Source: Promethearchaeota archaeon
Lineage (GTDB): Archaea > Asgardarchaeota > Lokiarchaeia > Sigyniarchaeales > SOKP01
Direction: 5' to 3'
DNA length: 64,000 nt
Assembly (NCBI GenBank): GCA_016839705.1
Contig: JAEOTR010000017.1
Location: 1 to 64,000, forward strand
Each line of letters begins with the position of its first letter. Within the stretch, counting starts at the first letter, position 1. Shown here piece after piece: positions 36,783-40,506 of the stretch. A program made the translations under genes and the position numbers. Under the pieces are notes generated by a model. That model worked only from the letters and a program-made list of their open reading frames with translations. It searched no databases and was not told the DNA's origin.

Positions 36783-38441
36783 TTATTTTTTCTTCTTTTC
36801 CATTCGTTTCTTTAATGCAGTTGATGATATTCTTGCTCTTTTTTGACCTTTAGCGGCCCAAAAGCTTGATACGGGAGCTTGAGCTACTTCTCTTTCTTCC
36901 AATTCAATTTCTTCTAACTCATCTTCTAAATATGATAATCCCTCTGTAAAATCTTGTTCAGCAAATGTCCTGTTATTCGATTTTAATGATTTCATTTCAT
37001 TTAGAAGTTCAGCTCTCAAGGTTGTCAACTGTACTTTTGATTCTTGAGCTTTCCCAGAATAATATCCTCCCCCAGCAATTTGGATATTCTTCATGACATT
37101 AAATTTCTGATTATATTTAGATTTGAAATCATCCTCATCTTTAGTAACCCCAATCCTGTCGTTAATAACTCTCATCCTTTTATTTCCTTTCTTATCTAAG
37201 TACTCCACTTGTAGCTGTACAGGCACTTCTTCTTGTTCTTCTAATTCTTTAGCAGATTCTAATTCTAGAAATAATTCTCTATCTTCTGTAATTGCACCTA
37301 GAGTTATTTCTGATCCTTCTATCGCTCCTTTAGAGCTGTAAGCTCCAGATATGCTTTTAATTATAATTCGTGGTGGGACAATAACTCTTACTTTTACATC
37401 CCTCCCAATATACTCTTTTTGTCTAAGTTCGGAGAAAATTGCCTCCATCTCTTCACTTGAAATTAAATATAATGTCCCGCCTGTCGTATCAGTTAGTTTC
37501 CCCAATACTTGAAGTCCCATTTCATTATTATCACCTGAAGCAGACACCCCTACAACATCAACTATGATTTTATATTGATTACATGAATCAGCCATATCTT
37601 CATAAAACTTATTTGCTCCAGGACTTGTTCCTGATAAATTTCCAATCCCTTGATTGGCTAAACCGTCGGTTAAAAGAGTTATTCTTCCTGTTGAATTGAA
37701 AAATCCGAATGAAATAATGGCAAAATATAAAGCAGGCCCAAGTGCAGTCATATCCATTGATCTAAGGTCTTCGACTTTTTTGATCCAACCATCTGCGAAT
37801 TCACCAATAGAACCCAGAAATTTTTCTTTCTTTATTGCTTTTTTAAATTGAGACTTCATCCCTTCCAAAGTAAAGAGTATATCTCCACTAAAATTAATTG
37901 GATCTTTATCATGTCTTAAGTAATAGTACACAGTACTTTCAAAAGCTACCAAGATATATTTAGTTGTTGGTGAATTTATTTTAAAATCTTTTAGAGTTTG
38001 AATTAATGATTTTTTCACAGCTTCAATTTTAGCACCACTCATGCTTCCAGAGATATCAATAACTGAAATATACAAATCACCTTCAGTTTTAGATACCTTC
38101 ATTATTTCTGTTTCTTCTTTAGGTTTTTTCGCTTCTAAAGCTGATAGTAAATAATCAACATCATTTGGTAATTTTTTTGTTAATTTAGACTTATCTACGG
38201 AATTATCAGTTCCACAGAACTCGCATATATAGTAGGCACCTTTTTGAGGATCTTCTTTAATCATATCTACATCAGTAAAAACCGCGCCACAATTTTTACA
38301 TTTTATTGGCTCATCCTTTATTTCCCTCTTAGGGTTCCCTAATTCTTTAAAAGTTATTGAGTATAGATAAGGATATAACTCTTTTTTTGAAGGCTTTTTA
38401 GCGAGGAACTTGTTAAATGCTCTATCAAACATAGGTTTCAT
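36783..38441 (-). CDS. Sec23/Sec24-like protein: C4 Zn finger + vWA trunk + beta-sandwich
   Basis: CKNCGA...ICEFCGTDN; DISGS, TALGPAL, LTDGLANQGIG, TGG; IGRDVKVRV. Confidence 0.8.
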   Translation of the reverse strand: MKPMFDRAFNKFLAKKPSKKELYPYLYSITFKELGNPKREIKDEPIKCKNCGAVFTDVDMIKEDPQKGAYYICEFCGTDNSVDKSKLTKKLPNDVDYLLSALEAKKPKEETEIMKVSKTEGDLYISVIDISGSMSGAKIEAVKKSLIQTLKDFKINSPTTKYILVAFESTVYYYLRHDKDPINFSGDILFTLEGMKSQFKKAIKKEKFLGSIGEFADGWIKKVEDLRSMDMTALGPALYFAIISFGFFNSTGRITLLTDGLANQGIGNLSGTSPGANKFYEDMADSCNQYKIIVDVVGVSASGDNNEMGLQVLGKLTDTTGGTLYLISSEEMEAIFSELRQKEYIGRDVKVRVIVPPRIIIKSISGAYSSKGAIEGSEITLGAITEDRELFLELESAKELEEQEEVPVQLQVEYLDKKGNKRMRVINDRIGVTKDEDDFKSKYNQKFNVMKNIQIAGGGYYSGKAQESKVQLTTLRAELLNEMKSLKSNNRTFAEQDFTEGLSYLEDELEEIELEEREVAQAPVSSFWAAKGQKRARISSTALKKRMEKKKK

Positions 38442-38524
38442 AAATTGAATTTTGAGAATGTAATAAAAACTGAATTATAAAAAATTATGGTTAATTTTTT
38501 AAAAAATTAAAAAAAAACCTTTAT

Positions 38525-38594
38525 CCCGTGCCCCTTGCTGAGGTGTCTTCGGTCATCTCGCTTTTAATATGCCCGAATCATTCTTTATTGGGAT
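38525..38594 (-). promoter_or_regulatory. Eukaryote-type SECIS element overlapping the stop codon
   Basis: AUGA(38581-38578)-UUCGGGCAUAUU-AAAAGC-GAGAUGACCGAA-GA(38547-38546); UUCGG/CCGAA and CAU/AUG pairing; GC-rich patch in AT-rich DNA. Confidence 0.85.
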
Positions 38595-39108
38595 TTTTAA
38601 TATTTTCATCTATAATTGATATCATCATTTCAATCGATGGTCGGTCTGTTTTATCTTTCCCAATATATTTCCATATAATTCTTCCTTCCTTGTTGATTAG
38701 AAATTTACTGGGGACAGCTTGTTTGATGTTTATTTTTTTTCCTGCACCTGGAGCAAACCAGTATACATCATACTCCTTTGCTATTTTTGCACCACGATCA
38801 GAGATTATATCAACAGTAAATTTATTTTCTTCTTTAAATTTCCTGAGAAGTCTAATACTGTCACTAGCTATCGATAAAAGTTTTATTCTTCGCTTTTTGA
38901 ATTTTGATAAATGCTCTGTTAGTAATGTCAAATGTTTTTTACAGTGAGTTCACCAATTCCCTCGGAAAAAATCTATTAATACGCCGTTAAATTCGTTGAG
39001 GAATTTACTTAAATTAATGGGATTATCATAGATATCCACTGTGTTTATTTGAGGTGCTTCTCTGTTTGTACTTATTCCTTTAGGTCTAGGTGGTTCATCA
39101 GCATTCAT
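38578..39108 (-). CDS. Peroxiredoxin-like (AhpC/TSA) selenoprotein, UxxC, 176 aa
   Basis: Track ORFs 38950..39213 and 38578..38931 are one frame joined by TGA 38952-38950: FFRGNW-U-THC, matching RGxWCxxC; SD..IAKEY, PSKFLINKEG. Confidence 0.92.
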
Positions 39109-39199
39109 AATATTTAATTTAGTCCTATTAGATTTAAATAATATTATTATAATATGTAAAGAGTTGATGAAAATGAGAAATTTCTTTTCTTTACGTTTC

Positions 39200-39718
39200 T
39201 CAATACTTTTCAAAAAGATTTTCAGTCATAATATTGAATGCTCTTTCAACATTTTCCCCAGTTTTTGAAGATAACTCAATAAAATTAGAGAGGTTGTATT
39301 TTTTAGCAGCTAAAATGCCATCTTCTCTCGGGACTGCACGGAATTGATCTAAATCTTTTTTTGATCCAATTAGCATTATTGGGATGTCTCCAGCCTGTTC
39401 TCTTACAATTTGTGTCCAATCCGGCAAATGATCGATACTTCTCACATTTGTAATATCATAAAGAAAAAATGCTCCATTTGCTCCTTTACAATATTGAGAA
39501 AGGAGAAATCTAAATCTTTCTTCACCCCCAAAATCCCACATTTGCAATTTTACTTTTTTTCCATTGAAAAGAGTTGTTTTAGAATAAAAATCTACGCCAA
39601 TTGTTAATTTCAAATCCTGCATGAAGTATCCAGAAATATATCTTAAGGTGAGGGACGTTTTCCCGACAGATGCATCTCCCAACATCATCAATTTAAATGT
39701 ATAATCGTAATCTGTCAT
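39200..39718 (-). CDS. Rab-like small GTPase
   Basis: YDYTFKLMMLGDASVGKT, TIGVDF, WDFGGEERF, GSKKD, SSKTGENV. Confidence 0.95.
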   Translation of the reverse strand: MTDYDYTFKLMMLGDASVGKTSLTLRYISGYFMQDLKLTIGVDFYSKTTLFNGKKVKLQMWDFGGEERFRFLLSQYCKGANGAFFLYDITNVRSIDHLPDWTQIVREQAGDIPIMLIGSKKDLDQFRAVPREDGILAAKKYNLSNFIELSSKTGENVERAFNIMTENLFEKY

Positions 39719-39870: not shown

Positions 39871-40506
39871 TCATAATAATAAAACCAGAATATTAAAGCA
39901 AGAATGTGCCACAGAGCATGGAATTAATGAATAATTAAAATATAAAAAAGTAAGAGCTAATAATACTCCTAAGATAAAATAATAACCAAAAAAAGTTAGT
40001 ATCGTAGTAACAGGTACTATAATAGGAGGAACATGATAGAACGCAAAAAGAACCGAAGAGATTATGACACCATAAACTACCTTTGTTTTGACCTGTAACT
40101 TCTTAATGATAAATACTCGAAAGAATGCTTCTTCACAAGGACCAATAATAATTATTTGCAATATTATTAGAATTGATAATTGGATTACATCGGGTTGTAC
40201 TGGGGTAGTATTTATCGCCCCTTCTTGTCCCTGTTCAATGAATCCACTACCAAACAAATTTTCTACGATTACATTTCTAAAGAATATTATTAGAAAGCTT
40301 CCTAAAAAGAAAAGTAAGATGCCAATACTTATTCCTGCAATGATTTTAATGATTAATTCTTCATTTTTTTGGAATCCCATTTCAGAAAGTAATTTTTTGA
40401 ATTTCTTTTTTTCAATTTTACTTGAAATAAGTGCAGGAATAAAAACCAGAAGTGTTTCAAGGAATATTAGAGTTATTAAAAACCAAGGATTTTCTCCTAG
40501 CTGCAT
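39871..40506 (-). CDS. CPBP/Abi (Rce1-like) intramembrane glutamic protease
   Basis: EEAFFR, FAFYH, AHSCFN motifs intact. Confidence 0.9.
   Translation of the reverse strand: MQLGENPWFLITLIFLETLLVFIPALISSKIEKKKFKKLLSEMGFQKNEELIIKIIAGISIGILLFFLGSFLIIFFRNVIVENLFGSGFIEQGQEGAINTTPVQPDVIQLSILIILQIIIIGPCEEAFFRVFIIKKLQVKTKVVYGVIISSVLFAFYHVPPIIVPVTTILTFFGYYFILGVLLALTFLYFNYSLIPCSVAHSCFNILVLLL

Follow-up and report, generated by a model that had tools for sequence, protein, structure and literature searches.

The window, by which we mean the whole 64,000-nucleotide stretch of DNA analysed, carries on its minus strand two open reading frames, 38950..39213(-) and 38578..38931(-), that share one frame and are split only by the TGA at 38952-38950. 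When this TGA is read as selenocysteine (Sec, U) and translation starts at the ATG at 39108, the result is a single 176-aa protein with the sequence FFRGNW-U-THC. The reading that this locus encodes a PrxL selenoprotein, carries a lokiSECIS and terminates at the UGA of the SECIS core has, in our estimate, a probability of about 0.9. The gene and its neighbours, which are typical Asgard 'eukaryotic signature' genes, are as follows.

36786-38441, minus strand: neighbouring gene for a Sec23/Sec24-like protein with zinc ribbon, trunk and beta-sandwich domains
38578..39108, minus strand: PrxL (Prx-like, UxxC) selenoprotein gene, 176 codons plus UGA stop (translation with TGA as U, Pfam, orthologue alignment)
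38941..38952, minus strand: redox box U-T-H-C, residues 53-56 (translation; homologues have UxxC or UxxU)
38950..38952, minus strand: Sec UGA codon, residue 53 (in-frame TGA at the same position in all of the approximately 100 homologues examined)
39203-39718, minus strand: neighbouring gene for a Ras-family small GTPase that ends ...LFEKY, without a CAAX box
39874-40506, minus strand: neighbouring gene for a Rce1-like CAAX protease

The 176-aa product matches Pfam AhpC-TSA (PF00578) with a value of 3.3e-21, in an alignment running across the TGA, and PF08534 with 4.8e-16. It has PDB matches to BCP and ResA, and its sole cysteine is C56. U53 lines up with the first Cys of the CKPC box in ResA and, in BCP, with the Ser of SPVC. 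This bears on the preliminary description of the locus, made from the DNA letters before any database search, which had placed the TGA exactly at the first Cys of the AhpC/TSA motif. The single frame, the in-frame TGA and FFRGNW-U-THC are as it described them, but true AhpC/Prx proteins have Ser or Thr at that position (T/SxxC), and the U corresponds instead to the first Cys of a ResA-like, thioredoxin-type CxxC. The name 'Prx-like' is defined in the literature by a CxxC-type box and not by T/SxxC (Mariotti 2016, PMC4989117).

Among Loki selenoproteins, PrxL has been described as a family that carries UxxC or UxxU, lacks any further Cys and is as yet without experimental characterisation (Mariotti 2016, PMC4989117), and Prx-like proteins are among five widespread Asgard selenoprotein families (Huang 2024, PMC11227280). 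Judged by its sequence, 38578-39108(-) is orthologous to the PrxL published for Lokiarchaeia, and its product is predicted to act as a thioredoxin-fold thiol/selenol oxidoreductase with a U-x-x-C box. The likeness to Lokiarchaeota PrxL.2 (PMC4989117) extends to the AhpC-TSA fold, Sec as the first residue of a CxxC-type box, the lack of any other Cys, a lokiSECIS at the gene end and a Sec-using Lokiarchaeia host. Bacterial Prx-like thiol:disulfide oxidoreductase selenoproteins (UxxC/UxxU; PF00578; 'predicted with high confidence', PMC13188914) share the domain family and the Sec position. Their genes, however, have a bSECIS directly downstream of the UGA and inside the coding sequence, where SelB reads it directly, whereas the PrxL SECIS is located at the gene end.

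When 161 genomes of the same class were searched in six frames, 92 proved to contain PrxL homologues. Each of the full-length matches listed contained one to three in-frame TGAs; one TGA corresponds to UxxC, and two to three to UxxU paralogues. We fetched 90 PrxL loci and parsed approximately 100 genes from them. Orthologue alignments span residue 1-2 to 174-176, and a lokiSECIS lies behind almost every PrxL gene of the same taxonomic family. The preliminary description had proposed aligning orthologues to look for Sec/Cys alternation. No Cys-for-Sec replacement was found at the first redox position among the approximately 100 PrxL genes parsed from the class, all of which have U there; it is only the second redox-box position that alternates, between C and U.

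Standard ORF calling divides the gene into 87-aa and 117-aa pieces, and the genome is a draft of 97 contigs with 6.8% reported contamination. Both observations would suit a reading in which TGA 38950-38952 is a real stop (in a pseudogene, between two small genes, or through a TGT/TGC sequencing error) and there is no selenoprotein. We regard that as extremely improbable. A TGA is present at the same codon in approximately 100 homologues from 92 genomes, the Pfam domain crosses it, a conserved and covarying SECIS lies behind the gene, and the genome holds a complete Sec machinery. The hidden UxxC selenoprotein proposed at the outset is thus borne out by the kept TGA, the machinery and the covarying SECIS, and Sec is presumably inserted at residue 53 of PrxL.

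The machinery, whose presence the preliminary description had left to be confirmed, comprises tRNA-Sec, EFSec, SepSecS, a PSTK-like gene and two selD genes, all found in this genome. SepSecS (C87:135853-137154) scores 479 bits, and EFSec (C16:17984-18871) scores 236 bits to selB versus 137 to EF-Tu. The PSTK-like gene is a clear best match at 146 bits (E = 1.4e-42), a score below the NCBIfam curated cut-off of 290. The two selD genes are neighbours, each with one in-frame TGA. The tRNA-Sec gene at C16:22954-23079 (+) consists of the same bases as the end of contig C87, in reverse complement. The two contigs overlap by 127 bases, and EFSec, tRNA-Sec and SepSecS therefore lie in one neighbourhood.

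The tRNA-Sec gene has a 33-nt intron in the D arm, while the published Loki tRNA-Sec has a 31-nt intron in the T arm. Without the intron it is 93 nt long and is called tRNA-SeC(tca) by ARAGORN. The spliced form folds into a perfect cloverleaf of the 9/4 type, in which the D stem has 7 bp and the D loop 4 nt; it also has a long variable arm and an encoded CCA. Scanning the genome with RF01852 gave sub-threshold matches only, because the intron interrupts the gene. Another ARAGORN tRNA-SeC call, at C18:39386-39471, was rejected for its poor acceptor stem and 40% GC, and the gene at the C16/C87 junction was preferred. Of the 1374 open frames in this genome with 300 codons or more, 195 end in TGA, which is therefore a normal stop here, so global reassignment of TGA was rejected as well.

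Directly at the end of the PrxL gene, and partly within it, is a hairpin-bearing element whose parts are as follows, from the 5' to the 3' end of the transcript.

38523..38594, minus strand: whole SECIS, made up of lower helix, internal loop and core, upper helix and apical loop, and side hairpin (87-sequence alignment, pair counts)
38590..38594, minus strand: lower helix (helix I), 5' strand AUCCC, within the last codons (N-P) (8 of 8 pairs with double changes, 70% paired)
38578..38581, minus strand: AUGA core, in which UGA 38580-38578 is the gene's stop (sequence; AUGA invariant in 87/87 homologues)
38569..38577, minus strand: upper helix (helix II), 5' strand UUCGGGCAU (9 of 9 pairs with two-sided changes, 89.5% of cells paired)
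38557..38568, minus strand: apical loop AUUAAAAGCGAG, 12 nt, with an A run and terminal AG (AAA and final G invariant in the alignment)
38548..38556, minus strand: upper helix (helix II), 3' strand AUGACCGAA (pair counts)
38546..38547, minus strand: GA of the core, which with AUGA forms a presumed tandem G.A kink-turn (GAC nearly invariant)
38531..38543, minus strand: side hairpin (helix III), CCUC, loop AGCAA, GGGG (88% of cells paired; present in the minimum-free-energy fold)
38523..38527, minus strand: lower helix (helix I), 3' strand GGGAU (fold, alignment, pair counts)
38509..38517, minus strand: run of nine Ts right after the SECIS, probably an archaeal transcription terminator (sequence)

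T-rich tails follow the SECIS in nearly all PrxL homologues in the alignment. The PrxL frame ends GAA TGA, with the TGA at 38580-38578, and the A at 38581 completes the AUGA, just as the preliminary description had read it. The same description had correctly identified the apical As (an A run in the loop 38568-38557) and the 3' GA (38547-38546), and its possible AUCCC/GGGAU lower helix is supported, in that 38594-38590 can pair with 38527-38523 and the pairing is kept in the pair counts. Its distance of about 370 nt from the Sec UGA was also close, at 371 nt before AUGA when measured. It had misjudged the helix arm, which it gave as 12 nt; the arm is 9 nt with one G.A mismatch, and 12 nt is both the AUGA-to-apical-As distance and the loop length. 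The overall layout, in which AUGA precedes a covarying 9-bp helix that is capped by an A-rich, AG-ending loop and followed by GA, is eukaryote-like as proposed.

The lokiSECIS and its position at gene ends were described in Mariotti 2016 (PMC4989117). The element at this locus has AUGA directly 5' of the stem, GA directly 3', a compensated 9-bp stem, AG at the loop end and a gene-end location. Its own copy of helix II consists of 8 pairs and one G.A mismatch. Its apical loop is 12 nt long, with As at positions 1 and 4-7, beginning AUU and ending GAG, and so differs from the published lokiSECIS loop of 11 nt with mostly As in the first five positions. A loop of 11 nt is usual in PrxL homologues and one of 12 nt occurs in a minority, which places this copy within family variation. 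Relative to a typical PrxL, then, this gene differs in its loop length, in the one G.A mismatch, and in having a core UGA stop where most have an upstream UAA.

Folded as a single sequence, the claimed structure is the minimum-free-energy structure, but its z-score against shuffles is -0.39, and the folding energy of this SECIS is by itself uninformative. An Rfam scan of 38300-39300 at E <= 10 gave no match to a SECIS family. This was expected, because existing SECIS models miss Loki elements (Mariotti 2016, PMC4989117). Weak matches to C/D-box snoRNA-like families in the same scan (E 4-8, far under the gathering scores) were set aside as noise from the words AUGAUGA and AUGA. Since Rfam is blind to Loki SECIS, we used Mariotti's description of the lokiSECIS as a search pattern: AUGA, then a stem of 9 bp, a loop of 11 nt with many As at its beginning and a final G (in most cases AG), and GA.

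In a loose form this pattern gave 218 matches, mostly noise, and only the tightened form was informative. It found 13 sites in the 3.36-Mb genome, versus 0-4 in shuffled copies. Six of the 13 sites lie right behind TGA-containing genes, namely selD, a PrxL paralogue, two vhuD/frhD-like genes, a gene for a 'UU' protein, and the PrxL gene studied here. Matches on contigs C23 and C50 were discarded, as they are within ordinary coding regions.

Covariation and a covariance-model score show that the element is real. In an alignment of 87 sequences (A1), little or no variation is seen in AUGA, the loop AAA, the G that closes the loop, and GAC; the loop-final G is invariant, and the A before it is present in at least 90%. 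The three-helix structure leaves 82% of cells paired, as against 27-47% when partners are slid, and 0 of 500 shuffles reached the observed covariation score. Changes on both sides are seen at all nine pairs of helix II, and at two of the four pairs of the side hairpin. The 70% pairing of helix I was obtained despite register shifts in the alignment. The preliminary description had named a lack of hairpin conservation or covariation in orthologues as grounds for giving up its reading, and the 9/9 covarying pairs of helix II show the opposite.

It had also suggested scoring the element with a SECIS covariance model. A model built from 86 other PrxL SECIS elements with this one left out (R1) scored 40.8 bits at this site (E = 3e-4), the second-ranking match in the 3.36-Mb genome. 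The PrxL paralogue ranked first, and the vhuD and selD elements followed; these other matches, too, directly follow genes that contain TGA. The score marks the hairpin as a true family member, slightly off-consensus.

The side hairpin lies between the core GA and the return strand of the lower helix, with the consensus ACCYU-GCAAG-GGU (A1 columns 60-74). This conserved arm makes the PrxL SECIS a three-way junction. A third SECIS arm does not appear in the accessible text of Mariotti 2016 or Huang 2024. By analogy with the eukaryotic type I SECIS, the AUGA and GA of the PrxL element presumably fold as a kink-turn.

The eukaryotic type I SECIS has a kink-turn AUGA/GA core and an apical AAR, is bound by SBP2, and requires a minimal UGA-SECIS spacing (Martin et al. 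1996, via Mariotti 2016). By comparison, the PrxL SECIS has a shorter, 9-bp upper helix, a conserved loop-closing G, and an extra side hairpin that forms a three-way junction, and it overlaps the coding sequence. No SBP2 was found in Loki according to Mariotti 2016 (PMC4989117).

The preliminary description had proposed that the SECIS core is its own stop codon, and at this locus that is so, since AUGA 38581-38578 holds the stop UGA. Whether the arrangement is general can be judged from 88 PrxL genes with a detected SECIS. The AUGA itself is present in 87 of 87 aligned orthologues, but it coincides with the stop in only 8 of the 88 genes. A stop 2 nt before AUGA, with the core in frame, is found in 41/88 (39 TAA, 1 TAG and 1 TGA), and 39/88 have UAA or UAG 1-58 nt upstream, with AUGA in any frame. 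The gene studied here reads AAA-GAA-TGA where the consensus reads TAA-GAA-TGA, so that it is one base off and its protein is two residues longer. The usual PrxL UAA stop is itself located within the internal loop of the SECIS, and the lower helix draws its 5' strand from the codons N-P-(K).

A UAAGA pentamer precedes AUGA (A1 columns 14-18), and it recurs in some lineages whose genes have an earlier stop in a different frame, for instance in 5/9 genes with d = 12. The pentamer may therefore have a place in the RNA motif in addition to supplying a stop codon. A UxxU paralogue in another genome (L054:1597-1692 (+), genome G063) reads TGA-GAA-TGA, so that its UGA stop precedes the core UGA by two codons. 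It is the only sampled PrxL with a non-core UGA stop, and this one, too, is only a few bases from the SECIS.

A location of the stop UGA within the SECIS core has been published for VhuU.1 (Mariotti 2016, PMC4989117). According to the same source, UGA is the stop codon of many Loki selenoprotein genes and is kept from being recoded by its closeness to the SECIS, in line with the minimal spacing known from eukaryotes. Overlap of stop and SECIS was later described as frequent in Lokiarchaeia, with closeness keeping the UGA a stop (Huang 2024, PMC11227280). This gene resembles VhuU.1 in its stop UGA within the core and in the too-close-to-recode explanation. VhuU differs from PrxL in being a hydrogenase subunit and in the bases after the stem, which are AA in VhuU and GA in PrxL. 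The gene family, the SECIS signal, AUGA as stop and the spacing argument are all in Mariotti 2016 and restated in Huang 2024, and are thus already known.

In mechanistic terms, the Sec machinery (EFSec, tRNA-Sec) would decode UGA 38952-38950 as selenocysteine, directed from the mRNA 3' end by the lokiSECIS, an Asgard type I eSECIS-like element. The SECIS is folded partly from the end of the reading frame, with the last sense codons going into the lower helix, then the AUGA core, followed by the 9-bp helix, the A-rich loop ending in AG, GA, the small side hairpin and the return strand. The UAA stop of most orthologues lies within the internal loop, in frame with the core UGA and two codons ahead of it. 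Here, a single base change from UAA to AAA has made the reading frame two codons longer, so that it ends at the core UGA. A ribosome there would already have melted the SECIS, so that no EFSec-tRNA-Sec complex could be delivered and the core UGA would act as a stop. We infer this explanation of termination by analogy with the minimal UGA-SECIS spacing in eukaryotes. The idea that the terminating ribosome unfolds the SECIS, which the preliminary description had put forward, is a published inference (Mariotti 2016) and fits the orthologues, most of which end at UAA two codons earlier.

Could the terminal UGA be decoded too, either as Sec or by readthrough? The frame is open for 18 more codons, up to TAA 38523-38521, as the preliminary description had counted, and several Sec residues occur in some Loki selenoproteins (Mariotti 2016, PMC4989117). 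However, a UAA or UAG two codons before this point ends the frame in most orthologues, readthrough of the eight core-UGA stops would add tails of 13-41 codons that bear no relation to one another at the protein level, and a ribosome at this UGA must have unfolded the SECIS according to the published minimal-distance argument. We therefore consider an 18-residue tail very unlikely, and retain termination at the core UGA as our reading.

With the end of the reading frame built into the SECIS, every terminating ribosome would melt the signal that upstream ribosomes need. This coupling might be functional, as a feedback tying Sec insertion to ribosome traffic with the core UGA as a fail-safe stop, but we doubt that it is; alternatively, it would be a by-product of compact 3' ends. 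Along the same lines, the overlap of stop and core could be a selected device, in which the in-frame core UGA is kept as a fail-safe or primary stop and termination is coupled to SECIS unfolding, either for compact discrimination between the two UGAs or for tuning Sec insertion to ribosome traffic. We consider this unlikely.

What speaks for selection is that, in the genus of this genome, the TAA-GAA-TGA arrangement is in frame in 41 of the 88 genes, with the core UGA taking over in 8 more, and that the core-UGA stop has arisen at least five times and is evidently tolerated. The in-frame spacing, however, is inherited within one orthologous group and is therefore not independent evidence. Outside that clade the core UGA is found in all three frames, with stops 1-58 nt upstream, and UAA or UAG is the stop in 79/88 genes. 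On the maximum-likelihood protein tree, the eight core-UGA cases need eight changes and are clustered no more than shuffled labels; they are scattered single tips, and the state is fixed in no clade. Well-supported branches of that tree force at least five origins. The preliminary description had viewed the overlap as an economical means of distinguishing the two UGAs. That view is not supported, given an overlap in so few genes and its scatter on the tree. Nor is the overlap new, as it had been published before. We conclude that the stop/core overlap in PrxL is a recurrent, tolerated one-base accident and not a conserved device, harmless because the core UGA lies in frame.

The Asgard SECIS is the best available link between archaeal and eukaryotic selenocysteine encoding, so clean examples are of some value, and annotation pipelines still cut selenoprotein genes such as this one in two. 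Nothing here is new in principle. What is added is that the overlap is a recurrent one-base accident (8/88 genes, at least five origins), that the usual UAA is already in the SECIS internal loop, and that the PrxL element has a conserved third arm.

Other candidate selenoprotein genes were seen elsewhere in this genome. The second PrxL gene (U-I-H-C; C13:69379-69948 (+), locus L114) is frameshifted near its 3' end, and its last approximately 35 codons (..FLINTEGNIVWQYIG..EKYL*) are in another frame. Its SECIS at C13:69912 is intact and is the best covariance-model match in the genome. The gene is either a pseudogene or carries an assembly indel.

The 'UU' protein is encoded by a 159-aa ORF at C73:86790-87266 (+) with two adjacent in-frame TGAs (..VVHAD-U-U-ADVMKERL..). 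Searches against Pfam and NCBIfam gave no match, and the family is absent from the Asgard selenoprotein families listed in Huang 2024 and in a 2026 review (PMC13188914). The ORF adjoins an ACR3-like transporter gene and small Cys-rich ORFs, and a perfect lokiSECIS is located at C73:87275, 5 nt past its TAA. Homologues are present in 133 of the 161 genomes of the class, with 2-3 in-frame TGAs in nearly all of the matches listed. The UU motif is identical in 12/12 close orthologues, with a SECIS found behind 11 of them, and a tandem paralogue has both.
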